Below, in pieces: positions 12,599 to 39,977 of a stretch of DNA of 64,000 nt. Both the position numbers and the translations under genes were made by a program. The notes under the pieces are model-generated. The model was not told the origin of the DNA. It saw only the letters and a program-made list of their open reading frames with translations, and made no database searches. The stretch lies in assembly GCA_965203905.1 (NCBI GenBank), contig CBDBDQ010000005.1:7296001-7360000 (forward strand), read 5' to 3'. Within the stretch, counting starts at the first letter, position 1; each line of letters opens with the position of its first letter. Origin of the DNA: Spirochaetia bacterium. GTDB lineage: Bacteria; Spirochaetota; Spirochaetia; SZUA-6; Bin103.

Positions 12599-12603
12599 GC
12601 GCC

Positions 12604-15015: not shown

Positions 15016-15121
15016 AGTATTGTGTATTGTATTGAGCGCGGCCTCAACAAAGCTGTGGAACGCATGACAGTCTGACGAGCCGCCCCGATACTCGAAGAAA
15101 ATAGTTTGGAGACGCTGTTCG

Positions 15122-16108
15122 ATGGACTCGCCCGTGGTCGTGGCTCGCGCTTTGACCAAGGACTTCAAGGTCGCACAGAAGACGAGTGGCCCGTTGAGCA
15201 CGCTACGCCACTTTGTCCGCCGCCGGTACCGCTTGGTACGCGCCGTCGACTCGGTTTCCTTCGCGATACGCGCGGGGGAGCGAGTGGCCATATTGGGTGC
15301 CAACGGCGCCGGCAAGACCACCTTGGTCAAGCTGATGTGCGGCCTGCTGCGCCCCACCGGCGGCCGCGTCGAGTTACTCGGCACGGAGCCGATCACACGT
15401 GAGATCTCCGTTCGCCGGCAAACGGGCTTGGTCTTGGCGGGGCGGGTCCGTCTCTGGCCCGAGCTCACCGCAAACGACAATTTCGAGTTGCTGTACTCAC
15501 TCTACGGCCTGGATGCCGCGGCACACGCCAAGCGCACGGCGCGGCTCGCCACGCTTCTGGGAGTTTCCGGCGACCTGAGTGCCCAAGTGCGGAAGCTGTC
15601 GTTCGGGACGCGCACCAAGCTGGAACTGATTGCTGGGCTACTGCACGCTCCGCGAGTCGTATTCCTGGACGAGCCGACCGTCGGGGTGGACAACCGTACC
15701 CGCGAGGCGCTGCACGACTTTCTCGGCTCTGATCGCGCGGACGGTCTTGGTCGTGACGTGGCGCTGGTGCTCACGTCACACAATCTCGCCGACATCACCC
15801 GCATCGCCCGCCGAGTCCTCCTGATCCGGGAGGGTCGCCTGGTATTCGACGGAATGTTGAGCGACGTGGTCGCCGCGGCGCGAGAAGCAGTGCGCATCAA
15901 GGTGAGAGGTCGCCGTCTGCGAGAGGCAGCGCTGCCCGATGCCCGCGTGGTCAGGAACACGCCGGACCAGTTGGAGCTTGCCGTCCACCCGCACGCCGTC
16001 CGCCGGGTCTTGGCGGCGGTTACCGAGCTACGGGACGTGCAGGACGTGCATACCGACGTGCCGAGCGCGGAGGAGGCGCTACAGGAATTGTACCGACACT
16101 ACGGATGA
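15122..16108 (+). CDS. ABC-2 type ATP-binding protein, system 2
   Basis: GANGAGKTT, LSFGTR, FLDEPTVGVD. Confidence 0.9.
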   Translation: MDSPVVVARALTKDFKVAQKTSGPLSTLRHFVRRRYRLVRAVDSVSFAIRAGERVAILGANGAGKTTLVKLMCGLLRPTGGRVELLGTEPITREISVRRQTGLVLAGRVRLWPELTANDNFELLYSLYGLDAAAHAKRTARLATLLGVSGDLSAQVRKLSFGTRTKLELIAGLLHAPRVVFLDEPTVGVDNRTREALHDFLGSDRADGLGRDVALVLTSHNLADITRIARRVLLIREGRLVFDGMLSDVVAAAREAVRIKVRGRRLREAALPDARVVRNTPDQLELAVHPHAVRRVLAAVTELRDVQDVHTDVPSAEEALQELYRHYG

Positions 16109-16920
16109 ACACTTTCCGCCGTATGGTCGTGGCCATCGGAGAGGCGCCTAGGGTGACCTGGAGCCTGACCACGGCACTCGTCACCCAGTCGATGGAATAT
16201 CGCGCTGACTATCTGCTCAACTTTGGAATGTCGCTGTTGCCGACCCTGATGCTCACATTCGTCTGGTGGTCGATCGAGGGAGCGCGCGGCCCTGATCGTT
16301 GGGACCTGCTGGCGTACTTCCTGGCCGTGCTGCTGTTGGAGCAGCTCACCAACTCTGACAATTTCCAGTGGCGACTGGCGCGGCGCATTCAGAGCGGTGA
16401 TGTCGAACTGGAAGCGCTGGTCGGTACCCCCTTGAGCACCGTTTGGTTCGGGACCGCACTTGGTATGCGAGCCGGACAGTTCCTCGCCAAGAGTCCGGGC
16501 TTATTGCTGCTCGCCGCGGGAGTGGTGCTGGCTGGCTCATGGCAGAGCATCGGGCACTTTGGATACGCGGTTCTGGCCATCTGTGGTGCCTTCGTCGTTC
16601 GCTTCCTTCTGTCCGTCACGGTGTCGGCACTCACATTCTGGATCGATGACGTCGCCGGCATCTACTTCAGCATCCAGTTGGCGGCGAGCGTGTTGTCCGG
16701 CCGTCTGATCCCGATCGACCGGCTCGGCGCGCCGGTCGAGTCGGTGCTCGCGATGACGCCCTTCTACTACATGGTCTTCGCGCCGGCGACGGTGCTGGCA
16801 GGGAGCATCCCGGAGCATCCCGTCCTGGTGGGGCAACTGGTGTGGACGGCGCTTCTGCTGGCCACGGCCTGGGTACTCACACGCGCCGGCCTCCGGCGCT
16901 ATGCGAATGTCGCCGCGTAA
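16105..16920 (+). CDS. ABC-2 family permease, system 2
   Basis: Multiple TM segments, 'MEYRAD', 'LSGRLIP', C-terminal 'GLRRY'. Confidence 0.85.
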   Translation: MNTFRRMVVAIGEAPRVTWSLTTALVTQSMEYRADYLLNFGMSLLPTLMLTFVWWSIEGARGPDRWDLLAYFLAVLLLEQLTNSDNFQWRLARRIQSGDVELEALVGTPLSTVWFGTALGMRAGQFLAKSPGLLLLAAGVVLAGSWQSIGHFGYAVLAICGAFVVRFLLSVTVSALTFWIDDVAGIYFSIQLAASVLSGRLIPIDRLGAPVESVLAMTPFYYMVFAPATVLAGSIPEHPVLVGQLVWTALLLATAWVLTRAGLRRYANVAA

Positions 16921-17698
16921 CGCTGTTGAGGTGGCCGCGGCGGTGCTCAGGGCGAGCGTGCAGGCCGACACGGCGTATCGCGGCGCCTTCCTGGCGCGCG
17001 CAGCAGAGGCCATCGCCAGTCTGGCCCTGTCGATAGCATTCTACGGCCTGATCTACAGCCACACGAGTGGGATAGGCGACTGGAGCTACGCCAACATCCT
17101 GGCCCTCGCCGGGACCTTCGAGATCATTCGCGGCATCGTGCATGGGCTGTTCATGCGCAACCTGCCCGGCCTGCAGGACCGGATTCGGACCGGGACGCTG
17201 GACTACGATCTGATCGCTCCAGTCAACACGCGTTTCCTGGTCTCGTGCCGCCGGCTGTACGTGATGAACTTGCTGAACGTTCTGCTCGGTGTATTCCTGG
17301 TGATCGCGGCGGCCGGCCTCGGAGAATCGTGGCCTGCGCCGGCCGGCGTGGCCGGCTACGTGGTCATGCTGATCTTCGCCGTGGTCGGCAACTACTGCCT
17401 GTGGTTCATGGTGATGTGTTCCGCGTTCTGGCTCGAGAAGGTCGACGGGCTCCAGGAACCCTACCTGGAGATATTGAACCTGTCCCGCTATCCCCCCACC
17501 GTCCTTCCGCGGCCGGTCAGGGTAGCCGTGACGGTGTTGCTACCGGCGTTGGTTAGCGCAGCGCTGCCGGCATCGATGCTCTGGGGCGGGTTCGGCGGGC
17601 ACGTCCTGGGGTTCGGCGCCGGAGTGGCGGCCACTGCCATGCTGTCCTCGCTCGTATTCCGGCGCGGCCTCTTGCGTTACGAGGGGGGCACCGCCTGA
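16907..17698 (+). CDS. ABC-2 family permease (DUF990-like), system 2
   Basis: 'AYRGAF', 'GTLDYDLIAP', 'SRYPPTV', C-terminal 'GLLRYEG'. Confidence 0.85.
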   Translation: MSPRNAVEVAAAVLRASVQADTAYRGAFLARAAEAIASLALSIAFYGLIYSHTSGIGDWSYANILALAGTFEIIRGIVHGLFMRNLPGLQDRIRTGTLDYDLIAPVNTRFLVSCRRLYVMNLLNVLLGVFLVIAAAGLGESWPAPAGVAGYVVMLIFAVVGNYCLWFMVMCSAFWLEKVDGLQEPYLEILNLSRYPPTVLPRPVRVAVTVLLPALVSAALPASMLWGGFGGHVLGFGAGVAATAMLSSLVFRRGLLRYEGGTA

Positions 17699-17989
17699 GT
17701 CTCCCACGTCACCGCGGTGGTATGGAAGAATGTGTTGGTCGCCGAACCTTGAGTTCCGCCACTCGCCCGAGTACTGCCGGCCGTGGCCGGTGGGCAGCAG
17801 TTTCATGGCGGGCTACCGGTCAAAGGGGCAAACACCAGGAGGCCGCCGCCTGATCTGTTACACACCTATTCACGGAATCTTTGAGCCATCCGTGTGACCC
17901 GCAATGGTACTTGGCCTGACTGCACACCGGAAGAGAGGGTGTTGCGGCGTGAGACGGTTGAAGGTGCCACTGAATGCTATGGTGGGATA

Positions 17990-18856
17990 GTGGTCCATTG
18001 TCGGGAGACCCTGTACGTATCGGATATGGACGGAACGTTGCTCCGTACCGACGGATCGCTGTCGCCCTACAGCGTTCGGACGCTGAACCGCCTGATCCAC
18101 GATGGCATGCGGTTTACGGTAGCAAGTGCCAGAGGCTGTGGCCCAATCCGGATCGCTCTGGACGGTCTCCGCCTGGCCCTGCCGGTCATCAACCAGAACG
18201 GCGCGTTCGTTTCGGATCTCGCGACAGGCCGCCATCTGGCGATCCATGCCATGCGACCACAAGTCGCGCATGGCTTGTGGTCGCTGCTTGATCGGGCTGG
18301 GAGCAGACCGTTTCTGATGACCTTCGATGGTGGCCTCGATCGCCTTTACTTCAACGACAGTGTCCTGCGCAACCACGGCATGCGGCGGTTTCTCGAGGAC
18401 CGACAACGGAACCAGGATCCGCGGCTTGCGCACCTCGACCACCTGCAGGACGGCCTGGAGGATCAGGTAGTCTGCCTCACTGCCATCGACCCACTACCCC
18501 GGATTCGGCACTTGGAGCAAGCGATCAGGCTGCGCTACGGCCGATCGGTCGCTTCGCACAGTCACGAGGAACACGGACTCTGGCTCTTGGCGATCCACGA
18601 CTCCTGCGCCACCAAGGAGCAGGGCATAGCCCATGTGCTCCAAGGGCAGAACCTGCCGTTACCTCGCTTGGTGGTGTTCGGCGACCAGATCAATGATGCC
18701 GGCATGTTCCGCATGGCCGACGAAGCGTACGCGGTGGCCGGCGCTGTGCCCGACCTCGCGCAACATGCCACCGCCGTGATCGGCTCCAACGATGACGATG
18801 CCGTGGCCCGATGGCTGGACGCCCACTGGCGCTGTTATGCCCGTTGCGGTGAATGA
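17990..18856 (+). CDS. Cof-type HAD superfamily hydrolase
   Basis: 'SDMDGTLL', 'VASAR', 'ATKEQG', 'FGDQINDAGMF'. Confidence 0.9.
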   Translation: MVHCRETLYVSDMDGTLLRTDGSLSPYSVRTLNRLIHDGMRFTVASARGCGPIRIALDGLRLALPVINQNGAFVSDLATGRHLAIHAMRPQVAHGLWSLLDRAGSRPFLMTFDGGLDRLYFNDSVLRNHGMRRFLEDRQRNQDPRLAHLDHLQDGLEDQVVCLTAIDPLPRIRHLEQAIRLRYGRSVASHSHEEHGLWLLAIHDSCATKEQGIAHVLQGQNLPLPRLVVFGDQINDAGMFRMADEAYAVAGAVPDLAQHATAVIGSNDDDAVARWLDAHWRCYARCGE

Positions 18857-18917
18857 CGCGAAAAAAGACCCCGGCGCCGCGCGGTTACGTTGGCACATCG
18901 GTGGGAAACCGGTAAGC

Positions 18918-19643
18918 ATGCTTCGGACGATCTTTTTCGATGTTGACGGCACACTGCTGGACGACGACGCCAACTGGCGCTCAGCGGTGGCGGCAACCGC
19001 GCGACTAATCGCCGATCGCTGCCCTCCGCTCGGCCGTGAGGAGCTGACCTCGGCGTATTGCGACGCGGCCACTGAGATCTGGCGCACGATCCGAGACGCA
19101 CAAGAGGCGCCGTGGGGCAACATGGACGATCCTGGCATCGTCCGCAGGGTTTGGCACTCCGCACTCGCGGGCTTGGCTGCCTCAGGCGACGATTCCTCCG
19201 AATATGCGGCACACGCCTACGCCCGGTTCAGGCTCGCGCGAGTCTCAGTGTTCGCCGATGTCAGGGGCTGTCTGGCGAGCCTGCAGGACAAGTACCGGCT
19301 CGGGGTGATAACGAACGGTTCTAACGCCACCCATCTCCCCAAGATCGCTGCGGCCGGTCTGGATGAGTACTTCGAATCGGTTACTACCACCGACTGCGGG
19401 GCGGGCAAGCCGCTGCCCACCATCTTCAATCACGCCCTTGCAGGGCTGGATGCCAAGCCAGCGTCCAGCGCCTTCGTCGGAGACTCGCTGCACTGGGACA
19501 TCGCCGGCGCCAACCAGGTCGGTATATTCTCCATCTGGCTTAACCGAGCCGGCACACAGCGCGCGTCCCGTGACCCAGTACCGCGGGCCGAAATCGCCTC
19601 TCTCCACGAACTTCCCGAGTTGCTCAGCCGAGCCGACCCATGA
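18918..19643 (+). CDS. HAD family hydrolase (YjjG/YigB-like)
   Basis: 'FFDVDGTLLD', 'ITNG', 'GKP', 'VGDSLHWDIAGA'. Confidence 0.9.
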   Translation: MLRTIFFDVDGTLLDDDANWRSAVAATARLIADRCPPLGREELTSAYCDAATEIWRTIRDAQEAPWGNMDDPGIVRRVWHSALAGLAASGDDSSEYAAHAYARFRLARVSVFADVRGCLASLQDKYRLGVITNGSNATHLPKIAAAGLDEYFESVTTTDCGAGKPLPTIFNHALAGLDAKPASSAFVGDSLHWDIAGANQVGIFSIWLNRAGTQRASRDPVPRAEIASLHELPELLSRADP

Positions 19644-19795
19644 ATATCAGTCGCACCGCCAAGGCCCCCCAGCACCCCAACCCAGCCTCCACTTATGTTC
19701 GCGCGCGGGCGACCGCCGCGGCCAGCGTCCGATATTGTAGCCGCGAGCGCAGGCACGAACGGGCGCGCGGAGCTGTACATGAAGGGCAAGCGGCA

Positions 19796-19840
19796 GGACT
19801 GCGCGCCCGCGTCACGCGCTTGCGTAGCGCGGGCGGGTCC
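19796..19840. repeat. GC-rich imperfect palindrome (REP-like or terminator-like hairpin)
   Basis: GGAC..CGCCCGCG..ACGC-GCTT-GCGT..CGCGGGCG.GTCC self-complementary, intergenic. Confidence 0.45.
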
Positions 19841-20012
19841 AAGACTACCCGTCGAGGGGCATGATGAAAATCGGTGTATTACCGCCTGGCACCACGGCAA
19901 TCCCATGGATAGCCTGAGAAGAACGTCCTCACGTTTGCTTTCTGTGGGTAACCGAACATACTTGGTGACAGCCGCCCGACGGGCAGTGTCAATTCGAAAA
20001 ATAGGAGACGGC

Positions 20013-20042
20013 TTGACGCCGATTCGGCGCGGTTGGCATTCT
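20013..20042 (+). promoter_or_regulatory. Candidate promoter for a leaderless methyltransferase mRNA
   Basis: TTGACG-18 nt-CATTCT, GTG start 6 nt downstream, no RBS. Confidence 0.45.
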
Positions 20043-20048
20043 TTCCTC

Positions 20049-20720
20049 GTGAGTTCTGCCGAGCCTTTCTGGGAACGGGCCTATCGGGACGACAGAGCGG
20101 ATACCTTTGGTCGTCCCAGCTCCGAGATCGTTTCGCTGGCGGACCGCCTGACGAGAGGGGCGTTGGTCCTGGACATGGGTTGTGGCGAGGGGCGGAATGC
20201 TCGATTCTTGGCCACGCGCGGGTTTCAGGTGGACGCCTTCGACGTGTCGGAGGCGGGGATCAACAAGCTCACGCGCATGGCTGCCCTAGAGGAGGTGAGC
20301 GTAAACGCATGGGTAGCCGACCTGAACACTTTTTGGTTCTCTCGTGCCTACGACGTCATCATCGCCCACGGAGTCCTGCATCTGCTCAAACGGGAAGTGT
20401 GGTCACGGCTAATCACTGAAATGAAGGAAAGCACTCGGACCGGCGGCGTCAACGCGGTGTCCGTGTTTACCGATGAGATTCCCCCCCCTCCTGATATGGC
20501 GCCGTTTACTGTAGGGATCTTCAAGGTCGGAGAACTGGCCGGTCAGTACGCCGACTGGCACCAGGAACAAGCCACGTCCTATATCCTCGAGGACGAGCAT
20601 CCCGGCGGTCTTCGCCACCGTCACTCCATCGACAAAGTCGTCGCCTGGAAAATAACGGAAGAGGCAGATAGCGCGTCCAAACCCAATCAGGGCCAAGATC
20701 GACCGGAAGCGCAACCGTGA
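20049..20720 (+). CDS. Class I SAM-dependent methyltransferase (TehB-like)
   Basis: 'VLDMGCGEGRNARFLA', 'FDVSEAGI', 'YDVIIAHGVLH'. Confidence 0.9.
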   Translation: MSSAEPFWERAYRDDRADTFGRPSSEIVSLADRLTRGALVLDMGCGEGRNARFLATRGFQVDAFDVSEAGINKLTRMAALEEVSVNAWVADLNTFWFSRAYDVIIAHGVLHLLKREVWSRLITEMKESTRTGGVNAVSVFTDEIPPPPDMAPFTVGIFKVGELAGQYADWHQEQATSYILEDEHPGGLRHRHSIDKVVAWKITEEADSASKPNQGQDRPEAQP

Positions 20721-20946
20721 CGGCACGATTCTAAAATGACACACTACCCGGGCAGGCGTTAACTCGGGCGCAGTTCGGCAGTCCGCGTGGTGAACATCGG
20801 TCGCGTTTACGTTGGATACAGTTCGCGCCACGTCGCGCAAATCTCGTCTACCGAACCACGGGCTACGAAGAGTCAGGTTGCTTTATCAAAAATTTGCTGT
20901 AACACTGGCCGCGAGTCTCACCAGTTGGCTCAGGAGGTATACCCCA

Positions 20947-21408
20947 ATGAGAGGAGTAGCGGTAGTGGCAATACGCCAGACCACGAGGGATCACGAGGTT
21001 CTGTTGCTTCGAAGAACTCAGAGCAACGCTGGCCAGTGGTGTCAGATTTCTGGGAAGATAGAGTCTGGCGAGACAGCGTCGCAGGCTGCGCTACGCGAGA
21101 TGAAGGAGGAGACGGGGCTGATACCAAGCCGGTTCTATTCCGCTGACCTGTGCGAACAATTCTACGAGATCGGAAGGAACTCTATCTGGCTCGCTCCAAT
21201 CTTCGTCGCGTACGTGGAACCCGAGGTCACCGTCACGTTGAACGAGGAACACAGCGAGTACTTCTGGACCTCGCTCGGCCGTGCTATTGAATTGCTGCCG
21301 TTTCCCGGTCAGAAGTCGATGTTGATGCACATTCGTCATTGGTTCGTGGAGCGTGAACCTTCTCGGCTTCTCGAGATCGACGTCAGCTCGGTCGTACGGG
21401 CGAAGTGA
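20947..21408 (+). CDS. NUDIX hydrolase
   Basis: Nudix box GKIESGETASQAALREMKEETG; RBS AGGAGG. Confidence 0.92.
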   Translation: MRGVAVVAIRQTTRDHEVLLLRRTQSNAGQWCQISGKIESGETASQAALREMKEETGLIPSRFYSADLCEQFYEIGRNSIWLAPIFVAYVEPEVTVTLNEEHSEYFWTSLGRAIELLPFPGQKSMLMHIRHWFVEREPSRLLEIDVSSVVRAK

Positions 21409-21723
21409 CAATAGTGAGACGATATACCGCTGAGACGGTGGCAGCCACTCTGCGGCGGAGGCTTGCTGCTCGACCGCGGATCTTCGGAGGATAGGCATCC
21501 GCGTCACGGAGTTAGCGTCGGGATCGGCATGAAAATGCGCTGCGACCGCGTTTCGCAACGAGAAGTGAGCCGGGATGCGATTTTTTCCATGGGCGCGAGT
21601 GTAACTCCTGGTGCTGCTCGAGTTCCAGAATAGAGTGGTTGGCAAGAGGCGGAGAATCCCGGACAGATCCGCCCGACGAATGGATTGAGATTTTCCCGCG
21701 CAGCCGGCCGCGCGACCATGCCA

Positions 21724-21812
21724 AGCTGCGAGGTCGCTCATCCAACCAGGACCGGACGATCCAGCAGCATCGAGGGGGCGAGAATCAATCTCTGGCGTGC
21801 GCCGGCCGAGAG
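21724..21812 (-). pseudogene. Degenerate fragment of an ABC exporter NBD, paralogous to 7561-7652
   Basis: Reads LSAGARQRLILAPSMLLDRPVLV then a frameshifted DE-TSQL; aligns at DNA level to the 7347-9077 gene. Confidence 0.75.
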
Positions 21813-22113
21813 TCGGCTCGCTCGCCAATTGCCGCATCGAGCCCCGCGCAGCTCGCCGAGCCAATAGAGTTGGCGAGTGATCGAATTGACCATACTACCT
21901 GGACTCACTACATTTCGGCATGGAGTCAGCTCGGCACACCGACGCATGCAGCGTCCTGCACCACCGCAGGACGGTTGGCATCTTGTGGGCGCCACGGCGG
22001 GAGCTGTACGAGGGCATTTCCGGGCACATTGGGCCGAACCTGCGGACCAGTAGCCTGATCAAGTCGACGTTCGCTTCGGTACGTCAGCCGGCACTCTCTT
22101 AAGATCGGATAGC

Positions 22114-22911
22114 ATGCGGCCCCGGCTCTACGGCCATATCCTCAAGACACGATTTCTGTCGAGCCTTGCGTATCGAACGGAGTTGGTGTTCCTCGTTCTG
22201 ACAAGCTTCGTCGTGGTGCTCGGAATGTCGTTTCTTTGGAAAGCCCTCTACGGCGACCAGGGGAGCGGGCGCGCCCTGACCCTCAACCAGATGCTGGTGT
22301 ACCTCATCGTCGCCCAGATGATGAATCAACTGCTGTTCTCCAACCTGCCCGAACGGATCAACGAACGTGTCTACCACGGCAACATCAGCATCGACCTGAT
22401 CCGACCGGTGCCGCTGTGGGCGGCGTGGGTGGCCGAGGATGTGGGCGACGCGTTGAGCCGGCTGCTTATCCGGGGCATTCCGCTGCTCATAGTTGCGTCG
22501 GTCCTGATTGCGCTTCCGCAACCGGCGAGTGGGTCGCTGTTCCTGTGGTTCCTGGTCAGTCTCGGTCTCAGCTACGCGCTTATGACGTCAATCGGCTACA
22601 TCGTCGGCCTCACGTCCATCTGGTACATGGACTTCGGCGACTTCGGCAAAGTGGTTCGCGCGAGCGTTGTATTCCTATCCGGAAGCGTGGTGCCGATCTG
22701 GTTCTTCCCTGAGTGGTTCCAGCGGATCTCGTCGCTTCTGCCCTTCATCTATATCTATCAATTCCCGATCGGGATCTACATCGGGAAGTACTCGATCGGC
22801 GAGATCCTCAATGGTCTCGCGGCGCAGCTCTTTTGGATTGCACTGGGTGTCCTCGGTGGCCTGTTGATGTGGAATCTGGTCAAGAAGAAGATCGTGGTCC
22901 AGGGCGGATGA
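22114..22911 (+). CDS. ABC-2 family permease (COG4587-like), system 3
   Basis: 'LAYRTE', 'GNISIDLIRP', 'LSGSVVPIWFFP', C-terminal 'VVQGG'. Confidence 0.9.
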   Translation: MRPRLYGHILKTRFLSSLAYRTELVFLVLTSFVVVLGMSFLWKALYGDQGSGRALTLNQMLVYLIVAQMMNQLLFSNLPERINERVYHGNISIDLIRPVPLWAAWVAEDVGDALSRLLIRGIPLLIVASVLIALPQPASGSLFLWFLVSLGLSYALMTSIGYIVGLTSIWYMDFGDFGKVVRASVVFLSGSVVPIWFFPEWFQRISSLLPFIYIYQFPIGIYIGKYSIGEILNGLAAQLFWIALGVLGGLLMWNLVKKKIVVQGG

Positions 22912-23723
22912 TGAGCACCCTCCGCCGACACCTCCGCGTCAGCCTGTTCTACACGAAGCTGTCGTTGATCCGCCTCATTGAGTATCCGGTCTACCTCCAG
23001 AGCACTTTCTTGATGAATCTGACCACCGCCGTAACCGGCTTCTTCGTCCTCCGCGTGATGTTCACGGAGTTCCAGGCGATCGGCGAGTGGGACATCGCCA
23101 GCGTGTCGTTTCTCTACAGCTTCAATCTCATCACCCACGGGATCGTGCTGGTCGTAGCGCAACCGATCTGGTACATGGGGCGGAGGATCTTGAGCGGCGA
23201 TTTCGACCTGATGCTGGTGCGCCCGCTCGACACGCTCTGGCTCCACATCTCACGTGGCGTCAACTACATGGACCTGGCCAACCCCATCCTGGCGCTGCTC
23301 ATGATCATCTACAGCTTGGGCGAGCTTGGTTTCACTCCAACGATCAGCAACGTGGTCGGGTTGGTGCTGCTTGTTTTCTTGTGCAGCGTCATCCGCGCCG
23401 CTCTCTACTTGATCGGCTCGACGACATGCTTCTGGTGGCGCAACCGCGAGTCACTCAAGGAGTTCTCGGCGACGCTGATGAACGACATCGGCCGCTACCC
23501 GCTGACCGCCTACCCGTGGGCGATGCAGTTCATCCTCACCTTCCTCATACCAACGGGCTTTGTTGCATTCTACCCGGCGTCGGCGGTGCTGCACATCAAG
23601 GATGGTCTCGTTGCCGGCTCTGCGATCTACGTGACCCTCGCGATCATGGTCGTAGTACTCTCGATAGGTTCCTACCTGTTCTTCCGCCTTGGGCTCAGGT
23701 ATTATGAAAGCGTCGGGCACTGA
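22908..23723 (+). CDS. ABC-2 family permease (COG3694-like), system 3
   Basis: 'GDFDLMLVRP', 'RYPLTAYP', 'LTFLIP', C-terminal 'YESVGH'. Confidence 0.9.
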   Translation: MMSTLRRHLRVSLFYTKLSLIRLIEYPVYLQSTFLMNLTTAVTGFFVLRVMFTEFQAIGEWDIASVSFLYSFNLITHGIVLVVAQPIWYMGRRILSGDFDLMLVRPLDTLWLHISRGVNYMDLANPILALLMIIYSLGELGFTPTISNVVGLVLLVFLCSVIRAALYLIGSTTCFWWRNRESLKEFSATLMNDIGRYPLTAYPWAMQFILTFLIPTGFVAFYPASAVLHIKDGLVAGSAIYVTLAIMVVVLSIGSYLFFRLGLRYYESVGH

Positions 23724-23724
23724 G

Positions 23725-24729
23725 ATGGGCATCATCGAGACGACACGTGTCTCCAAGACTTTCAAAGTAAACCAGAAGAAGAAGGGACTGATCGGCGCAG
23801 TTAAGGGACTGCTGTTCCCTGACATTCGCCACATCGAGGCGGTCAAGGACGTATCGTTCAGTATCGAGGAAGGCGAGATCGTGGGCTACATCGGTCCGAA
23901 CGGATCCGGAAAGAGCACCACCATCAAGATGCTTTGCGGCATCCTCCATCCATCGGCGGGCGCTGTCAAGGTGAACGGTCTTGATCTTCCCAGGCAGCGA
24001 CGCCACTTGGCGATGGACATCGGTGTGGTGTTCGGCCAACGCAGTCAACTGTATTGGGACATCCGACTGGGGGAAACATTCGAGCTATTCAAGCGCATGT
24101 ACGACATCAGCGACGCCGACTACACCCAGCGCATGGGCGTCTTCCACGAATTGCTCGACATCGGGGATTTCGTCGACCAGCCGGTGCGCCAGCTCTCCCT
24201 CGGCCAGAGCATACGGGGCAACTTGGTGAGCGCGTTCCTCCACTCCCCCAAGCTGCTATTCCTGGACGAGCCGACGATCGGCCTCGATATCGTCGGGAAG
24301 AAGAAGATTCAGACGTTCATCAAGGAGATGAACCGCGAGTACCACACGACCGTCGTCCTGACGACCCACGACCTGTCTGACGTCGAGAAGCTCTGCGAGC
24401 GCGTCATCGTGATCAACCACGGTGAGATCGTCGAGGACGACAGACTTGTGAACATCACTCGCAAGCTGGCTCCCTACAAGCTCATCCATGTGCTGACTGA
24501 CGGTACCATTCCGCCCATCAACGTAGCTGGGTGCCGGCTGCGATCGGTGGACGGCAGCAGGATGTGTCTCGAATTCGACCACCATCGACACGACTCCGTC
24601 GAGCTCATCGCAAAGCTTTCACGCCTCATGCAGATCAATGACTTCAGCATCGTCGATCCTGACATCGAGGAGGTCATTGGGACTTACTACGGAGCACCAC
24701 CGGCGGATCGCGCCGATGGACTGTCGTAG
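23725..24729 (+). CDS. ABC-2 type ATP-binding protein (COG4586-like), system 3
   Basis: GPNGSGKSTT, 'VFGQRSQLYWD', LSLGQ, FLDEPTIGLD. Confidence 0.92.
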   Translation: MGIIETTRVSKTFKVNQKKKGLIGAVKGLLFPDIRHIEAVKDVSFSIEEGEIVGYIGPNGSGKSTTIKMLCGILHPSAGAVKVNGLDLPRQRRHLAMDIGVVFGQRSQLYWDIRLGETFELFKRMYDISDADYTQRMGVFHELLDIGDFVDQPVRQLSLGQSIRGNLVSAFLHSPKLLFLDEPTIGLDIVGKKKIQTFIKEMNREYHTTVVLTTHDLSDVEKLCERVIVINHGEIVEDDRLVNITRKLAPYKLIHVLTDGTIPPINVAGCRLRSVDGSRMCLEFDHHRHDSVELIAKLSRLMQINDFSIVDPDIEEVIGTYYGAPPADRADGLS

Positions 24730-24927
24730 CCTCGCAGTCGACCGTTGCCGTCCTGGCGCCGGCGACGCGGGCCAGTCCGGTGTACAACACGGCCTTGGGG
24801 CGGCACCACGATGCGCACACGCGTGACTATTGACGCTGGTCATGGTACCCTCCTGATCGGAAGCTGGAAAGCCCGCTGACGCTGCCGATTCGTGGTCAGC
24901 TCGGGTGCTGTTCTCCTCCATACTTCG

Positions 24928-25707
24928 ATGCGTACCCGACACTTGAACATGACCATTGACGAGTTCCACCTGATGGCGAGAGAGCCAGGATGGAAGTATG
25001 AGTACTGGAGCGGGCAAGCGCATATCTCTCCCGCCCATCGGTCAGTCTCCGCGTCCCTCGAAATCGAACCACGTGCATGCCGATCTCCTTGTCGGATCCG
25101 GCCCGCGGAAAGCAGCTACGAGCGGGCGACGATTGCCGCTTTCGTGGCCGCCTTCAGAGATACCATCGATTTTTGTGACTGGGAGGAGACGAGAATCGCC
25201 GATTCGGCAAGAGACAACGTGATCGGATTCTTCTCCGGCGAACGCGGAGAGCCTCATCCGGCGTCGCGCCTGGCGTTGGTCGCCCATCCGGAAGTCGAGC
25301 AGGAGTCAGTCGTTGGTGCTGCCCTCGTAGCCGAAATGAAAGACGAGTCCGTGCGGTTGGATCTACTATTCGTGACGCCGGAGTGGCAACGAATGGGTGT
25401 AGCTACAGCCCTTGTGACAGCGACTCTCAATCAACTGTATGAGAGCGGCCACAGGACGTTGAAGAGTCGATACAACCTCGGTAATGCTGGGAGCAGGGCA
25501 TGGCACAGAGCGTTCGGGTTCGTAGACGATTGCGACCTGTTGTTGGCAGAATCGTACTATCGCCTGGCTAAACATGAGCTTTGGCGAAGAGAGAAAGTCG
25601 GCGATCTCACACAGGTAGAGCGCCAGAAACTGAACCTGGAGATCGATCTCTGGAGAGTCCAGGCTGACAAACTGTCGGTTGCTGCAAGGCGTTGGCGCGC
25701 GCATTGA
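24928..25707 (+). CDS. GNAT family N-acetyltransferase with N- and C-terminal extensions
   Basis: 'LFVTPEWQRMGVATAL' and 'GNAGSRAWHRAFGF'. Confidence 0.82.
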   Translation: MRTRHLNMTIDEFHLMAREPGWKYEYWSGQAHISPAHRSVSASLEIEPRACRSPCRIRPAESSYERATIAAFVAAFRDTIDFCDWEETRIADSARDNVIGFFSGERGEPHPASRLALVAHPEVEQESVVGAALVAEMKDESVRLDLLFVTPEWQRMGVATALVTATLNQLYESGHRTLKSRYNLGNAGSRAWHRAFGFVDDCDLLLAESYYRLAKHELWRREKVGDLTQVERQKLNLEIDLWRVQADKLSVAARRWRAH

Positions 25708-25895
25708 GTTCGGTGCGCCGCGCACTACGCCATTGCGGCCGGGACGCAGCCACAGGGCGATTCGGCTTGCCTGTAATCGAAAGGCGCAATTTTTTTTGAA
25801 GCTTTCGCCGATTTTTTCTCGTTCATGGGTTGACACGGTATTGGCCGTCCGATCCGACGACATTCCCGACCGGGCACGAATCTAGCCGAGAATAC

Positions 25896-25925
25896 GCGTG
25901 GCGGGCGCTCTGTCCCCCGCCACGC
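25896..25925. repeat. 10-bp perfect-stem hairpin upstream of the DUF222-HNH gene
   Basis: GCGTGGCGGG...CCCGCCACGC. Confidence 0.5.
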
Positions 25926-26016
25926 AGCCAATGATCCTGAACCTCAAAAGTCGGCATCCGACCGCTCTACGGGGCGTCAGTGGGTGGTCGAAATCCGGGT
26001 GTACGATAGCCCCATC

Positions 26017-27684
26017 ATGGAACACGACACGAGGACGACCGCGCCCCAGGCCACGGCACGAGCCGCGGTCGAGTGGGCTGAGCCCACGGCGACCGAGCTG
26101 CCCGCGGGCGCGGTCGCTGCGGCTAAGCCCGCTCACGGGACGCCGGTGGAGAGTTGCGTTGCGACGTCGCCCACTGCCGTGGACGCGGCGCCGCCGGAAG
26201 CTGCCGAGCCACCCGACCTGGACCAGCTCGGTGACCAGATAGCCGCGCTGTCGGCACGCATCGACGCCGCCACCTACGAGCTGCTGTGCCACCTGCACCG
26301 TTTCGACCGCCACCACGGCTGGGAGGGCTTCCGGTCCTGCGCCCACTGGCTCAACTGGCGCACGGGCCTCGATCTCGGCGCCGCCCGCGAAAAGCTGCGC
26401 GTGGCCGCCGCGCTGGCCGACCTGAACCACATCGCTGCGGCGCTGGCGTGCGGGCAACTCTCCTACTCGAAGGTGCGTGCGCTGACCCGGATCGCCACGC
26501 CGGGCACCGAAGCGCGGCTACTGGCTGTGGCCTTGAGTTCCACCGCGGCGCAGGTGGAGCGGCTGGTGCGGGGGTGGCGGCAGGCGGACCGCGAGGCGCA
26601 GCCCGATGCCGAGCAGGTGCGCTTGGCCAGCCGCGGTCTGAGGATGGAGGTGGACGAGAAGGGGATGGTCGTGGTGCGCGGGCGACTGACGCCGGAGGTT
26701 GGCGCGGTGCTGCTGCGCGCGGTGGAGGCGGCGCTGGAGCAGGTGCCCGCGCCCGCCGAGGGCGAGCAGGCGACGTTGGCGCAGCGGCGGGCGGATGCGC
26801 TGGGGCTGGTGGCGGAGAGTGCGCTGGCCGGCGGGCTCGATCCGGGCAGCGCCGGCGACCGGTTCCAGGTGACGGTGCACGTGCCAGCGGAAGCGCTCGC
26901 CTCCCGCGAACCGGCCACTGCGGCCCCCGGCGCAATTTCCGCGGAAACGCGCGCCGCGAGCCAGGCGGCAGCGGAAGCGACCGTTCCGGCGCCGCCGTAC
27001 GGGCAGCAGGTCGCCGGACGCGCCGCGGCCGGAGGAGCGGCCGGCGCTCTGCAGCGCGTTTCCGCGGAAGGGTGCGAGCTCGGCGTGGTGGCGCCGGAGC
27101 CTCCGGGACCGGCAACCGACCGCGACGCCGGTCAGGCGGTGATCGAGCAGGCCGGCGGACTTCACGTCGGCCGCGACGCGGTGCGCCGCGTGGCCTGCGA
27201 TTCCGGCCTGGTGGTGCTGGGCCATGGCTCCGACGGCGAGGTGCTCGACGCCGGCCGCAGGACCCGTACCGTCCCCACCGCCCTGCGCCGCGTCCTGCAG
27301 GACCGCGATCGTAACCAGTGCCAGTTCCCCGGCTGCGAGAGCCGCCACTGCGACGCCGATCACGTCGTGCACTGGGCCGACGGTGGCGAGACTCGGCTGA
27401 GCAATCTGGTTTTGTGCTGTCGTTTCCATCACCGCGCCCTGCACGAAGAGGGCTTCCGGGTGGTGGCGACCGATGACGGCCGGTTCCAGTTCCTGCGCCC
27501 GGACGGGGTGCCGCTGCCGGCGGTGCCGGCGGCGGCGCGCTGGGCGGGGGCGCCGCGGGCGCCGACCGATGCACGGCTGGAGGCGGCCGGGATCAGCATC
27601 GGTCCGCATACCGCGACGCCCGAGTGGTACGGGGAACCGCTGGAGCTGGCGGCCGCGCTCGACGTCCTGTGGGAGCCCCCGTAG
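26017..27684 (+). CDS. DUF222 domain-containing HNH endonuclease
   Basis: 'FRSCAHWLNWRTG', 'LSYSKVRALTR', 'RRADAL', 'CQFPGC..DADHVVHWADGGETRLSNLVLCCRFHHRALH'. Confidence 0.9.
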   Translation: MEHDTRTTAPQATARAAVEWAEPTATELPAGAVAAAKPAHGTPVESCVATSPTAVDAAPPEAAEPPDLDQLGDQIAALSARIDAATYELLCHLHRFDRHHGWEGFRSCAHWLNWRTGLDLGAAREKLRVAAALADLNHIAAALACGQLSYSKVRALTRIATPGTEARLLAVALSSTAAQVERLVRGWRQADREAQPDAEQVRLASRGLRMEVDEKGMVVVRGRLTPEVGAVLLRAVEAALEQVPAPAEGEQATLAQRRADALGLVAESALAGGLDPGSAGDRFQVTVHVPAEALASREPATAAPGAISAETRAASQAAAEATVPAPPYGQQVAGRAAAGGAAGALQRVSAEGCELGVVAPEPPGPATDRDAGQAVIEQAGGLHVGRDAVRRVACDSGLVVLGHGSDGEVLDAGRRTRTVPTALRRVLQDRDRNQCQFPGCESRHCDADHVVHWADGGETRLSNLVLCCRFHHRALHEEGFRVVATDDGRFQFLRPDGVPLPAVPAAARWAGAPRAPTDARLEAAGISIGPHTATPEWYGEPLELAAALDVLWEPP

Positions 27685-27766
27685 CGGCGGTCCGGCGCAG
27701 CGCTGCCCGCGCACTGCCTGGGGCTTGTACCGGCGTGCCGCCCGACCCGCTCGAGTACGGATTCGC

Positions 27767-28674
27767 GGAAGTGCGTCAGTTTTGAAAATCCACCCTGTTG
27801 GCACTGCACGCCACGCGACGAGCTAACGTTACTCAATCCTTCTCCGCTCACGGTGGCGGTGAGCCCGGGGATCGAAGTTGTGGGCGTGTGCCCACATGCC
27901 GCGCTTCGCTTCACGCGCCCCCCGCTCGAGTTGTTTGTAGCGGTCATGGTAGGCGGCGATAGCAAGTCCTTCCCACACCATCCATTCACCGATGTCTCTG
28001 CCCTCGCAGGTCACAGTGCCGACTATCCGCCCGAACTTATCCACGCTCTCGACCGCCACACTGACATGCTTGCCGCCAATTTTCTGAATGAGCGCGCTCT
28101 TCACGCGCCTCCCGTGGTTGAACCAGTATCCGTCCTGATGTTTGGCCTTCTGATCCCATTCGGGCGCGTCGAGTCCGGCGAGGCGCACTTCCTTTCTGGC
28201 CACCCGTATCCCGTCGCCGTCGGTCACATACGCTTTGCCCGTGATCGTACGGGTAGGGCTCTCTACCCAGCGAGCGGGGAAGGCGGGTGTCTCGACCCGA
28301 TGCGCGGGGCGGAGCTGCGCTCCAGATGACCGGTAGTCCACGCGTCGCTGCTCTGGTCCTGTTCCGCTCGAATGCCCCTTTTTCTTCTGCCGGTGAGAAC
28401 GCTTCCCTGGGATGAGCAGGATGACGACAACGACAACGAGAGTAATCAACCACCACCACTTCGCGACCCATCCAGAGAACGCATCGAACAGCATGTCCCT
28501 CGAATATCGGGGACATGGAGTGCTGGCTTTACGGGCACCACTATCCCTCGCCACCACGATCGGCGTCTCTGTCGTCCCTCCGGCTGGTCGCCAGCGGCGC
28601 TCGCTGGAAAAAAGCGATGCCGCTCGATGGAGGGGGCTGCTACCCAGGCTCTGATTTCAAACTGACGCACTTCC
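27767..28674. mobile_element. Non-autonomous 908-bp element with terminal inverted repeats carrying a thermonuclease gene
   Basis: GGAAGTGCGTCAGTTTTGAAAATC (27767-27790) versus GATTTCAAACTGACGCACTTCC (28653-28674); outer 16 bp are a perfect inverted repeat; no transposase and no target-site duplication seen. Confidence 0.75.
27829..28557 (-). CDS. Thermonuclease (SNase-like) family protein with N-terminal TM segment (start may be the downstream ATG, MLFDAF)
   Basis: 'VTDGDGI', 'VRLAGLDAPE', 'DKFGRIVG', 'AREAKRGMW'. Confidence 0.88.
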   Translation of the reverse strand: MVARDSGARKASTPCPRYSRDMLFDAFSGWVAKWWWLITLVVVVVILLIPGKRSHRQKKKGHSSGTGPEQRRVDYRSSGAQLRPAHRVETPAFPARWVESPTRTITGKAYVTDGDGIRVARKEVRLAGLDAPEWDQKAKHQDGYWFNHGRRVKSALIQKIGGKHVSVAVESVDKFGRIVGTVTCEGRDIGEWMVWEGLAIAAYHDRYKQLERGAREAKRGMWAHAHNFDPRAHRHRERRRIE

Positions 28675-28713
28675 CAAGCTTGACTCTGTAAACGGGTCCG
28701 CTTATATCTCGGC

Positions 28714-29535
28714 ATGGAGCCGGAGCGACACGCCGAGGGATGCAACGTCCTGCAAGCCCACCGGTCGGGTGAGGCACTTGGGCGGGTTGCCGGCGCCGCC
28801 TCGCGGAGCAACGAGTTCGGCCAGCCGATCGGAATGCCGGTTGCCGGCTGGAAGCCACCGCCGGCTCCCGACCGCTCCATCCGAAGGGGACAGTACTGTC
28901 AGTTGGAGCCGCTGTGCGAGGAAGCGCACGGCCGTTCCCTGTTCGACGCCTTCGCCGCCGACGCGCGTGGGGTCAACTGGACCTACATGCCGTACGGGCC
29001 GTTCGCGGCGTACGCGGACTTCAGCCGCTGGCTGGGCTGGGCCTGTGAGGCGACCGATCCCCTGTTCTTCGCCGTGCTCGACGCGGCCCGCGGGAGGGCG
29101 GCGGGGTTTGCCTCGTATCTCAACATCGACCCGGCCAACGGCTCCATCGAGGTGGGTCACATCCACTTCTCCGAGGAGCTCAAGCGGACCCGCGCCGCCA
29201 CCGAGGCGATGTACCTGCTGATGAAGCACGCCTTCGATCTCGGCTATCGCCGCTACGAGTGGAAGTGCGACGCGCTCAACCGGCCGTCGCGCGCCGCGGC
29301 GCGGCGTCTCGGGTTCCGCTTCGAAGGGCTGTTCCGCAACGCCGTGGTCTACAACGGGCGCACCCGGGACAGCGCCTGGCACTCGATCGTCGACCGCGAG
29401 TGGCCGCGCCTGGACGCCGCCTTTCGCACCTGGCTGGCCGCGGCCAACTTCACCGCCGGCGGGCATCAGCGTCAGAGTCTGAGCACGCTCACCGCGCCGC
29501 ACTCCACCGACATCGTCGCGGTAGTCGGCGGCTAG
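28714..29535 (+). CDS. GNAT family acetyltransferase (RimJ/RimL-like)
   Basis: 'NEFGQPIG', 'WTYMPYGPF', 'SIEVGHI', 'LGYRRYEWKCDALN', 'GRTRDSAW'. Confidence 0.9.
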   Translation: MEPERHAEGCNVLQAHRSGEALGRVAGAASRSNEFGQPIGMPVAGWKPPPAPDRSIRRGQYCQLEPLCEEAHGRSLFDAFAADARGVNWTYMPYGPFAAYADFSRWLGWACEATDPLFFAVLDAARGRAAGFASYLNIDPANGSIEVGHIHFSEELKRTRAATEAMYLLMKHAFDLGYRRYEWKCDALNRPSRAAARRLGFRFEGLFRNAVVYNGRTRDSAWHSIVDREWPRLDAAFRTWLAAANFTAGGHQRQSLSTLTAPHSTDIVAVVGG

Positions 29536-29539: not shown

Positions 29540-31396
29540 ATGGCATCCGAGTTCACCGCGGCTGCCGCCTCGGCGCCGCGCGCTACCCAATTCGATACCC
29601 GTTCCCCGGGACGCTGGATCGTGTCGCATCTGCGCTGCTATCCCGTGGTGTTCGTTCTCGCGATCGTGCTCCAGCTCACCTCCTGGTCGTTGTTCGCCTC
29701 GATGCCGGTGATGATCGGCCGCGCCGCGCAGGGGGTCATCGACGGCCTCGGCAGCCGCGAACTGCTGCTGGCGGCCCTCCGCCTGCTGGGCGTCATGGCC
29801 GGCAACTCCGCGGCGCTGATCGGCGTGATGGCATGCGCCGCCAGCCTCGGGCACCGCCTGCAGCGCGACGCCCGCGACGAGCTGTACCGCGGCCTGCTCG
29901 GCAAGAGTCAGACCTTTCACAACCGCCAGCGCATCGGCGACCTGGTGGCGCGCGCCACCGACGACACGCGCCTGGTCAACGAGATGATCAACCCCGCCCT
30001 CGTCTACCTCACCGACCTGCCGATCGGCTTCGTGGTGACGCTGACCTACGTGATCCTGATCGATCCGGTTCTGGCGCTCGTGCCGGCGCTCTACGGCCTG
30101 GCGTTTGCCGCCGCGGTGCGCGACCACATGCGCCGCGTGGGTCCGGCGCTGGCGGAACAGCGCACCCAGTACGGGCGCCTGGCCGCGGTGGCCGAAGAGG
30201 TGATCACCGGCATCGAGGTGGTCAAGGCCACCGTGCGCGAAGCCTGGGAGCAGCGGCGCTTCCGCGGCGCCGCCGGCGTGCTCCGCGACCTGATGGTGCG
30301 CCAGGGCAGGATCGAGGCGCTCAACGTGGCGTTGCTGGCGTTCGGCATCGCGACGGCGCTGGCGCTGCTGCACGGTATCGTGGTGCTGCACGCGGGCCGC
30401 ATCGAGCTGAGCGAGCTGATCGCCTTCGTCGGGCTGATGGCGCTGTTCCGCAACCCCAGCAACAAGGCGACCACGGTGTTCTCTCAGCTTCGCAACGGCG
30501 TCGCGGGGGCGCGCCGGATCCTTGCCCTGCTCACGGCGTCCACGGAGCTGGACCAGAACACCGGTGGCCACGAGGCCGCGATGCGCGGGGAAATCGCGTT
30601 CGAGCGGGCCTCCTTCGGCTACCACCGCGGACAGACGGTGCTGGCCGACGTCGACCTGCACATCGCCGCCGGCGAGACGGTCGCGCTGGTCGGCCAGACC
30701 GGATCCGCCAAGACCACCCTCACCCAGTTGGTGAACCGCACCTACGACCCCGGCGCCGGACGCATCGCCATCGACGGCGTCGACCTGCGCGACTGGAACC
30801 TGACCAGCCTGCGCTCACAGATCGCCACCATCGAGCAGGACGTGTTTCTGTTCTCCCTGTCGATCGCCGACAACATCGCCTTCGCCCGCCCCGGCGCCCG
30901 CCGGCAGGACCTGGAAGCCGCGGCCCGCGCTGCCGCCGCGCACGACTTCATCGAATCGTTCACCGACGGCTACGACACCATCATCGGCGAACGCGGCGTC
31001 ACCCTGTCCGGCGGCCAGCGCCAGCGCATCGCCCTGGCGCGCGCCTATCTGAAGGACCCGCGCATCCTGATCCTGGACGACTCCACCAGTGCCATCGACA
31101 GCGCCACCGAGGACGAGATCCAGCGCGCGCTCTACACCGTACAGCGGGGGCGCACCACGCTGCTCATCACCCACCGGCTGTCGCAGATCCGCTGGGCCGA
31201 CCGCGTACTGGTGCTCGACCGCGGCCGGGTGGTGGCCAACGGCCCGCACGACGAGCTGCTGGCCACCTCGGAGGTCTACCGCCGCATCTTCAGCCACTAC
31301 GAGATAGACCTGCCGCCGTTGCGCGGCCCGCGTCCCGGCGCGGCAACGCCCAAGGGAGGCGTCCCCGTGGGCGACGCAACCGGGAAGGCACGGTAG
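29540..31396 (+). CDS. ABC exporter fused permease/ATPase (degenerate-site subunit)
   Basis: TM domain; GQTGSAKT, LSGGQRQR, LILDDSTS. Confidence 0.92.
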   Translation: MASEFTAAAASAPRATQFDTRSPGRWIVSHLRCYPVVFVLAIVLQLTSWSLFASMPVMIGRAAQGVIDGLGSRELLLAALRLLGVMAGNSAALIGVMACAASLGHRLQRDARDELYRGLLGKSQTFHNRQRIGDLVARATDDTRLVNEMINPALVYLTDLPIGFVVTLTYVILIDPVLALVPALYGLAFAAAVRDHMRRVGPALAEQRTQYGRLAAVAEEVITGIEVVKATVREAWEQRRFRGAAGVLRDLMVRQGRIEALNVALLAFGIATALALLHGIVVLHAGRIELSELIAFVGLMALFRNPSNKATTVFSQLRNGVAGARRILALLTASTELDQNTGGHEAAMRGEIAFERASFGYHRGQTVLADVDLHIAAGETVALVGQTGSAKTTLTQLVNRTYDPGAGRIAIDGVDLRDWNLTSLRSQIATIEQDVFLFSLSIADNIAFARPGARRQDLEAAARAAAAHDFIESFTDGYDTIIGERGVTLSGGQRQRIALARAYLKDPRILILDDSTSAIDSATEDEIQRALYTVQRGRTTLLITHRLSQIRWADRVLVLDRGRVVANGPHDELLATSEVYRRIFSHYEIDLPPLRGPRPGAATPKGGVPVGDATGKAR

Positions 31397-39854: not shown

Positions 39855-39977
39855 CCGTAGTCCATCGGCAGAGCGCGGCGCGAGCGAACCCCGCGCCGTG
39901 AATCACTGTTGGTGGATTCGTTCGAAGACCTCCGCCAGCTCCTCGATCGCCGCGTCATATCCTCCCTTTTCCCTGCG

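Follow-up and report, generated by a model that had tools for sequence, protein, structure and literature searches.

In the 64,000-nt stretch of the Spirochaetia bacterium contig CBDBDQ010000005.1 that was analysed here (the window; all coordinates are positions within it), a single gene for a membrane-anchored protein of the SNase (thermonuclease) family is enclosed by two short inverted repeats that delimit a 908-bp unit (27767-28674). The unit resides between a gene for a DUF222- and HNH-containing endonuclease and the promoter-like site of an operon that starts with a GNAT acetyltransferase gene. A first-pass annotation of the window had taken this arrangement for a passenger-gene cassette that is mobilised in trans and had connected it with a wider system of gene capture. 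The features in question are listed here, P0077 and similar labels denoting relatives retrieved from a protein database.

27767-27790, plus strand: left terminal inverted repeat, perfect over its outer 16 nt; apart from two 1-nt indels, the inner 8 nt also match the right arm.
28653-28674, minus strand: right terminal inverted repeat, 22 nt; the plus strand reads ...ATT TCA AAC TGA CGC ACT TCC (the 'ISN*' frame).
27829-28494, minus strand: gene for the SNase-family (thermonuclease) membrane-anchored protein, 221 aa from ATG (Pfam PF00565, E 2.7e-15).
27791-27828, minus strand: 3' non-coding region of the SNase gene inside the unit, conserved in P0077 and P0122 up to or near the inner edge of the left repeat.
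28495-28652, minus strand: 5' non-coding region of the SNase gene inside the unit; P0006 and P0080, both of which start at GTG, show conservation of the ~63 nt that directly precede the ATG.
28675-28682, no strand: palindromic 8-mer CAAGCTTG, abutting the right end of the unit.
25984-27684, plus strand: DUF222 and HNH endonuclease gene, left neighbour, 74.3% G+C; it adjoins the SNase gene also in P0077.
28680-28708, plus strand: resident promoter-like site of the GNAT operon (TTGACT, 17 nt, TATATC), 5 nt outside the unit and not part of the cassette.
28714-29535, plus strand: gene for a RimJ/RimL-type GNAT acetyltransferase, right neighbour, heading an operon that also contains two ABC exporter genes.

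The left arm starts with GGAAGTGCGTCAGTTT (27767-27782), the exact reverse complement of which is found at 28659-28674 (16 nt, 100% complementary), so that 876 nt separate the two 16-nt arms. When two 1-nt indels are allowed, one in a T run and one in an A run, the repeat extends to GGAAGTGCGTCAGTTT[T]GAAA[A]TC with 22 of 24 columns matching, the right arm being short of one T and one A; blastn of arm against arm aligns 20/21 positions with one gap. The match ends at the borders of the arms, as the outer adjoining base of either arm does not match, and no further repeated sequence was found by blastn on the inner or outer side of either. Both arms are intergenic. The exact 16-bp inverted repeat, its extension to about 22 bp and the single membrane-anchored SNase-like gene inside it had all been pointed out in the first-pass annotation and were recovered here. 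The same annotation had noted an 'ISN*' frame at the right end and had likened it to the end of a transposase; such a frame does exist, as an open reading frame (ORF) at 28372-28665 that encodes 97 aa, ends with ...QALISN* and has its stop codon inside the right arm, while no family in Pfam or NCBIfam matched the encoded protein.

The passenger is recognized by Pfam PF00565 with 57.2 bits (cut-off 21), and its ORF extends without a stop codon as far upstream as a GTG at 28557. Staphylococcal nuclease (PDB 1snd_A) was matched with an E value of 0.0024, and the motifs RL..D.PE and DK.GR are aligned, with VRLAGLDAPE over FRLLLVDTPE and DKFGR over DKYGR. The columns of both motifs are invariant or nearly so across 19 aligned sequences and contain what we take to be the catalytic Arg, Asp, Glu and Arg of staphylococcal nuclease. 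At the N-terminus, a single hydrophobic anchor (MLFDAFSGWVAKWWWLITLVVVVVILLIPG) is followed by the basic stretch KRSHRQKKKGH, from which a cytoplasmic location of the nuclease domain is predicted; such a location would be unusual. PADLOC and NCBIfam returned only sub-threshold SNase-type matches. We found 411 homologues at E 1e-5 or better, eight of which are 77-95% identical; a large group with 60-72% identity begins with MDRIGLEDML..., and the few named homologues all belong to the Alphaproteobacteria (e.g. Boseongicola, 66%). By tblastn, SNase matches were obtained in 4865 plasmid records, all below 60% identity (best 33-40%) and annotated as thermonuclease family protein; the family of the passenger is frequent on plasmids. 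Among the more distant homologues, those with long N-terminal extensions (P0046, P0064, P0067, P0095 and P0103) have nothing in common with one another upstream of the start, and thus there are no flanks of the SNase gene that are conserved throughout the family. The gene itself contains direct repeats at 27909-27924 and 28099-28114 (16 nt, 15/16 identical, 190 nt apart).

With respect to base composition, the left arm coincides with a sharp drop in G+C content, from 76.8% in the left spacer (27685-27766) to 61.0% in the unit, the GNAT gene having 69.8%. The SNase gene exhibits 61.1% G+C and a G+C content at third codon positions (GC3) of 0.70, as compared to 0.86, 0.89 and 0.93 for three neighbouring genes. 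Since the break is located at the left arm itself, the enclosed gene is regarded as foreign DNA.

The reading that we favour, and to which we accord about half of our confidence, is that of an old, now sedentary and probably inactive cassette of the mobile-insertion-cassette (MIC) type with a membrane-tethered nuclease. The 908-bp unit would then represent the remains of a non-autonomous transposable cassette, with a pair of ~24-nt terminal inverted repeats such as a DDE transposase provided in trans would bind and cut, and with a calcium-type, membrane-tethered SNase-family nuclease as passenger that brings its own upstream region and may be active. The anatomy proposed in the first-pass annotation thus fits, as repeats, one foreign gene and the lack of a transposase come together; the second half of that proposal, mobilisation in trans, has found no counterpart in the form of a cognate element in the sequence collections scanned. 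No sign of current mobility was detected, and the unit appears sedentary.

A number of findings weigh against a cassette, and they are set out here together with the explanations that they would favour instead. The simplest of these explanations is that the inverted match of 16-24 nt is fortuitous and without function and that the SNase gene was acquired horizontally in some other way, for example by recombination within an island; we consider this unlikely, though by no means far-fetched. Chance was assessed with 1000 simulated windows of local first-order Markov composition, in which perfect 16-nt inverted pairs 50-3000 nt apart were counted. At least one such pair occurred in 148/1000 windows, and a pair as rich in A+T as the one around the SNase gene (8 G+C or fewer) in only 3/1000. 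The real window holds three perfect 16-nt pairs as compared to a simulated mean of ~0.2 per window, and the simulated background is for this reason too lenient. Length alone therefore does not distinguish the SNase pair from the two others. One of these (26937-26952 and 27054-27069) is situated inside the HNH ORF and is built on the palindrome TTCCGCGGAA, the other (29697-29712 and 30203-30218) inside an ORF for an ABC exporter. The SNase pair is the sole perfect one with both arms intergenic, it encloses exactly one gene, its left arm coincides with the compositional break and the match runs 6 bases past the perfect 16, all of which argues against a coincidence. We therefore accept the inverted repeat as genuine, if without overwhelming certainty. 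In the window, 129 inverted pairs reach a length of 18 nt or more at distances of up to 6 kb; the 25 longest of them are G+C-rich and 70-85% complementary, and a further gene-enclosing pair of comparable quality, such as the first-pass annotation would lead one to expect, is not present among these 25.

A second set of contrary findings concerns the traces that transposition usually leaves behind. The window contains no target duplication, as the first-pass annotation had already stated: the 8-nt flanks differ, as GGATTCGC precedes the left arm and CAAGCTTG follows the right one. Nor is there a second copy of the repeat within the 64 kb. The missing shared duplication would also be in line with two separate insertions of solo ends or miniature elements from one insertion sequence, which flank a resident gene in a composite-like manner and never moved as a unit, and the two indels in the inner parts of the arms point in the same direction. 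This possibility is rather improbable in our view, because each arm comprises only ~24 nt without further repeated sequence on either side, other such ends do not occur in the 64 kb and the G+C break at the left arm indicates a foreign enclosed gene.

Neither a transposase nor an integrase, resolvase or recombinase was matched by Pfam among the 116 ORFs of the window (49 likely genes and 67 ORFs from uncovered stretches), and the 10 alternative-frame ORFs of the unit and its junctions, which were also scanned with NCBIfam, gave no transposase remnant (0/10). This agrees with the earlier description of the cassette as transposase-free. Rfam families were not found in the window either. Blastn searches of 72,556 plasmids and of 50,697 phage records with the 908-bp unit came back empty, and a 51-nt query from the right end returned nothing usable from them (one match at E 0.9). 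We furthermore scanned both strands of 185,579 species genomes (one genome per species, 596 Gb) for the exact 20-nt end that fits both arms, i.e. GGAAGTGCGTCAGTTT, 0-1 base and GAAA, a pattern by which diverged ends would be missed. Only three matches were obtained, all of them solitary, in two Acidobacteria metagenome-assembled genomes (MAGs) and one Sphingomonadales MAG, where by our own calculation ~2 would be expected by chance. The window's own arms were not returned, and hence the source genome must be absent from this set or masked there. The match in an Acidobacteriaceae MAG (L001, 5999-6020) is intergenic, shares 22 consecutive bases (ATTTCAAACTGACGCACTTCCC) with the right end and is the sole one that extends past the pattern; it is probably due to chance. 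Of the other two, one (L002) lies inside a 429-aa ORF and one (L003) within a 217-aa ORF. An inverted partner arm was not present within 6 kb at up to 3 mismatches for L001 and L003, none was apparent for L002 as judged from its ORF map only, and no transposase-sized ORF runs into any of the three, which were consequently treated as chance matches and not as copies of an element. Thus, the autonomous transposase with matching ends that the first-pass annotation had anticipated did not surface in the window, in the plasmid and phage records or, for the exact 20-nt pattern, in the species genomes. The lack of a target duplication, of a transposase and of any other copy and the chance-level outcome of the genome scan are all compatible with a fortuitous repeat.

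For the junctions in related organisms, misframed ORFs in the protein database served as a proxy, so that the junction DNA of these relatives is deduced from translations. The search with the left junction returned P0077, P0122 and P0121. P0121 runs antisense to an HNH paralogue that has another gene beside it, and is uninformative. P0077 (272 aa, on a contig of 4363 nt) jumps from ...FNHGRRVK in the SNase into the +1 frame of the C-terminal region, as if the 190 nt from one of the 16-nt direct repeats (27909) to the other (28099) had been deleted. The ORF then leaves the SNase gene and ends with 31 residues that align with the reverse-complemented 3' end of the HNH gene (window 27688-27596; 27/31, E 2e-14). 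In this relative, which is ~4% diverged in that stretch as estimated from out-of-frame identities, the SNase gene is therefore arranged tail to tail with the same HNH gene and in the same orientation relative to it as in the window. As the gene adjoins the same HNH gene in both, the insertion is older than the split of the two lineages. The first-pass annotation had named an SNase gene that is syntenic in relatives lacking the repeats among the findings that would contradict it; P0077 corresponds to this insofar as it is syntenic on the HNH side and its left repeat is not intact, and the correspondence is limited to one relative and to the left side.

The stretch from ...SNVSSSR to the HNH stop codon comprises 67 residues (201 nt) in P0077 versus 124 nt in the window, with clear similarity only at the very start. 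There, P0077 reads THFPSL where the window reads GVQCQQGGFSKLTHF followed by RESV.... THF is obtained by translating ACGCACTTC, with which the repeat terminates on its outer side (last 10 nt), while PSL does not correspond to the left flank in the window; THFPSL as a whole is the exact translation of the right junction of the window, ACGCACTTCC joined to CAAGCTTG (28665-28682, plus strand). As CAAGCTTG reads the same on both strands, it is simplest to assume that the left end in P0077 consists of the repeat terminus abutted by CAAGCTTG, with 36 nt of inner repeat and spacer missing. This hints at an ancestral unit with CAAGCTTG on both sides, either as an old 8-bp target duplication or as the outer, palindromic part of the ends. 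That P0077 has kept the terminal residues together with the same 8-mer flank speaks against a fortuitous repeat.

The argument has its weak sides, which add to the points raised above against a cassette. It rests on six residues and on DNA deduced from a translation, and there are three exact 6-residue matches between the 67-residue tail of P0077 and the six-frame translation of the window, for which reason THFPSL is meaningful only by its position, directly on the junction and beginning with the first residue after the homology ends. In P0122 (103 aa, on a 2870-nt contig), agreement with the window lasts as far as ...SNVSSPRDVQCQQ; VTGRF and a stop codon come next, in place of GGFSKLTHF in the window, so that the two diverge at the inner edge of the left arm. 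Both readable relatives (2/2) accordingly lack an intact left repeat in that frame, P0077 having 36 nt fewer, as would not be surprising for a functionless match. In both, the conserved block ends at or near the repeat. On the right side, the 144-aa antisense ORF across the junction (28446-28880) had 0 matches among 1.84 billion representative proteins. The N-terminal extensions of the GNAT orthologues P0128, P0130 and P0132 reach only the promoter, and the residues SQA in P0132 were dismissed as a trace of the junction as they are 15 nt out of register with TCCCAAGCT in the window.

Returning to the MIC-type cassette, its history may be pictured as follows. The cassette would have entered the spacer between the DUF222-HNH gene and the promoter of the GNAT/ABC exporter operon, 5 nt upstream of the -35 hexamer, before the lineage of the window separated from that of P0077. 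Its insertion would have duplicated CAAGCTTG or carried it along, and a subsequent rearrangement would have removed the left copy from the window and made the spacer shorter at the same time. An empty site should accordingly consist of the HNH stop codon, the spacer, a single CAAGCTTGACT and the promoter, without the SNase gene.

On the right side of the unit, the ATG of the GNAT gene begins 5 nt past TATATC, and its closeness to the -10 hexamer of the promoter-like site suggests a leaderless transcript. Our promoter scan demands a T at position 6 of the second hexamer, a rule that the site at 28680-28708 fails and that a paralogous site at 21886-21914 (TTGACC, 17 nt, TACATT) passes. The GNAT orthologues are 93-74% identical, have 273 aa and share the start MEPxR[HY]. 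Their N-terminal extensions conserve the -10 region (PVY[FL]G before MEPE); the promoter is thus resident and the unit sits just upstream of it. The named, more distant GNAT relatives stem from Acidobacteriota, Planctomycetes and Salinisphaera and thus from other phyla than the named alphaproteobacterial SNase relatives. For the HNH gene, the only plasmid matches are actinobacterial (37%). Between the 120 listed SNase matches and the 120 listed GNAT matches, there is no overlap in longest-contig values, and several of these contigs on the SNase side and on the GNAT side are megabases long. This hints that SNase and GNAT genes are not usually linked, an observation that carries little weight because the contig data are incomplete (clusters with 39 members are listed with one contig).

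The promoter-like site and the first ~17 codons are present twice in the window, at 21886-21977 and 28680-28771 (TTGACY, 17 nt, TAYATY). The copy at 28680 heads the GNAT/ABC exporter operon, and that at 21886 a 60-aa ORF in front of an ABC-2 transporter operon; in this duplicated module, the ATG that follows 5 nt after the -10 hexamer again suggests leaderless transcripts. It could be a copied module of promoter plus start or a shared regulatory leader.

The position next to a promoter brings DNA inversion switches to mind. In switches of the fim and hin type, short inverted repeats surround a promoter-adjacent segment of less than 1 kb, and the 16-24-nt inverted repeats around ~0.9 kb at our locus resemble such invertons. 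A site-specific recombinase would then act on the repeats and turn the 876-bp interior around, whereby reading of the SNase gene or from the GNAT promoter would be switched. We rate this as very improbable: no recombinase was matched among the 116 ORFs, the SNase gene in P0077 has the same orientation as in the window, and the segment consists of a complete gene instead of a promoter. As it carries the whole gene and its own upstream region, flipping would not obviously change expression. Inversion of elements by recombination between their terminal repeats has been reported (PMC3004938, in the part of the text available to us). A reading of the arms as integron attC sites was dropped in view of the 876 nt that separate them and the lack of any match to an integrase family.

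The first-pass annotation had gone beyond the single cassette and had listed related ends at 20727, 19982, 21879 and 48041, which it combined with the unit into a family of IS1-type ends feeding the accessory gene arrays of the window. The four sites proved to be indistinguishable from chance. Only 20733-20748 is within 3 mismatches of the 16-mer (shuffled mean 0.44). The degenerate core GGWAGTGYGTCA with up to 2 mismatches was matched 18 times versus 14.9 +/- 4.1 expected, a number reached in 24/100 shuffles, and GGTAGTRT 3 times versus 1.0 +/- 1.0 (5/100 shuffles reach 3). With one mismatch, TTTCAAACTGA occurs in the right arm only, and blastn with 7-nt words and E <10 gave no alignment between an arm and any of the four sites. 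The supposed end at 21879 partly coincides with the -35 hexamer of the promoter-like site at 21886. A 69-nt direct repeat between 21909-21977 and 28703-28771 (74% identical, E 9e-9), which spans the -10 box and the first codons ME[PS]xRHxxxCxVL, is located outside the unit and is unconnected with the inverted repeat. Since the related ends are at chance level and this direct repeat has nothing to do with the inverted one, an insertion sequence (IS)-end-based capture system has no support in the window. The window is certainly rich in accessory genes (GNATs, ABC-2 transporters, HAD, NUDIX and methyltransferase genes) that lie in a 13-kb block of 60.5% G+C, which would suit such a system. It lacks a transposase and, among the 25 longest of its 129 inverted pairs, a second gene-enclosing pair of comparable quality, and we consider the capture system largely refuted within the window and give it hardly any credence. 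A related thought, which we regard as a long shot, is that the repeat represents the end of an undescribed group of transposable elements that is absent from isolate genomes, the transposase residing elsewhere in the high-G+C genome and mobilising single nuclease or defence-type genes in trans; the SNase unit would then be one of many cassettes seeding the accessory island.

The 13-kb block (12600-25900; background 65-75% G+C) comprises three similar ABC-2 transporter operons, each with an ATPase and two ABC2_membrane_6 genes, as well as GNATs, two HAD hydrolases, a TehB-like methyltransferase and a NUDIX gene, and looks like an accessory island of repeated modules. Further features are found at some distance from the unit. 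The segment 1000-2600 (47-50% G+C), situated between a GNAT gene and an ABC-F gene, is clearly foreign DNA; for its 399-aa ORF (1405-2604, minus strand), a match to the ClpP-like SDH-type serine proteinase family was obtained (E 5e-13). Further on, a direct repeat with 97% identity over 300 nt or more (39975-40274 and 43261-43560, 3286 nt apart) covers the ends of two genes of the AAA-ATPase_like plus PDDEXK_9 type (40018-41838 and an ORF ending at 43304). A HicA-like fragment (41835-42047) and an aspartyl-protease-like ORF lie between the copies, and the repeat looks like a recent tandem duplication. At 45209-47098, a 629-aa protein is encoded in which RTX calcium-binding nonapeptide repeats make up most of the sequence (16 matched stretches, E 7e-101), with a periodicity of 27 nt in the DNA. 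The region 51200-55600 (50-59% G+C) harbours a ParA/AAA_31-type ATPase gene (53168-54391, minus strand) that is overlapped at its end by a 208-aa ORF without family match, a ribbon-helix-helix fragment (51182-51382) and a DUF5131 gene (54901-55608), and may be the remnant of a plasmid, a phage or an integrative element.

Among known systems, the IS1 family had been put forward in the first-pass annotation as the source of the ends. IS1 elements have ends of the type GGnnnTG, a transposase stop codon inside the right repeat and target duplications of 8-9 bp. At our unit, both ends read GGAAGTG, an open frame stops at the TGA in the right arm and the possible old duplication has 8 bp. The agreement with GGnnnTG is weak as it is a constraint of four bases only. 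Different from IS1, neither an InsA/InsB-type nor a fused or other transposase is found among the 116 ORFs, and a duplication of 8-9 bp is absent from the window. The sections of the IS1-related article PMC10017437 at our disposal contain no IS1 end sequence. The attribution of the ends to IS1 is a tentative one. Ends of the Tn3 family are ~38 bp long, start with GGGG and go along with 5-bp duplications. Those of our unit are unlike them, with ~24 nt and a start with GGAAG, and no membership in Tn3 is claimed. In the accessible part of PMC4337579, miniature inverted-repeat transposable elements (MITEs) and Tn3-derived cassettes such as the TnXax1-related MICs of Xanthomonas are described as non-autonomous, as defined solely by the terminal repeats of the parent and as carrying passenger genes in some cases; the unit resembles them in these respects.

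The closest resemblance is to the MICs proper, and the definition of mic elements, as far as given in the sections of PMC3913671 available to us, fits the structure of the unit. Like MIC231 of Bacillus cereus and mic-qnrD and mic-qnrS2 of small plasmids, it consists of a passenger with its own expression signals between short terminal inverted repeats, without a transposase in the cassette or close to it. Terminal repeats and a transposase-free passenger are thus present at our locus. Published mics usually show a target duplication (PMC3913671, same sections), and the window has none; with regard to copy number and polymorphism, there is a single copy in 64 kb and one relative that carries the unit at the same site. 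MIC231 has ends identical to those of the known IS231 and is moved in trans by IS231A (as cited in PMC3913671, same sections), whereas no cognate element was found for our unit, present once in the 64 kb, in the sequence collections scanned. The repeats of mic-qnrD are imperfect and 24 bp in length, and in those sections no matching transposase is named for mic-qnrD or mic-qnrS2. As it stands, the unit is one probable relic that lends no support to a new mechanism of gene capture and changes the picture of how accessory regions arise little. Cassettes without transposase and with insertion-sequence-like ends are already known, and ours at best adds a nuclease passenger in an uncultured high-G+C bacterium. 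If it is a true MIC, then small transposase-less cassettes carry nuclease genes between distant and largely uncultured bacteria, and its 24-nt end would provide a handle for finding the transposase responsible.

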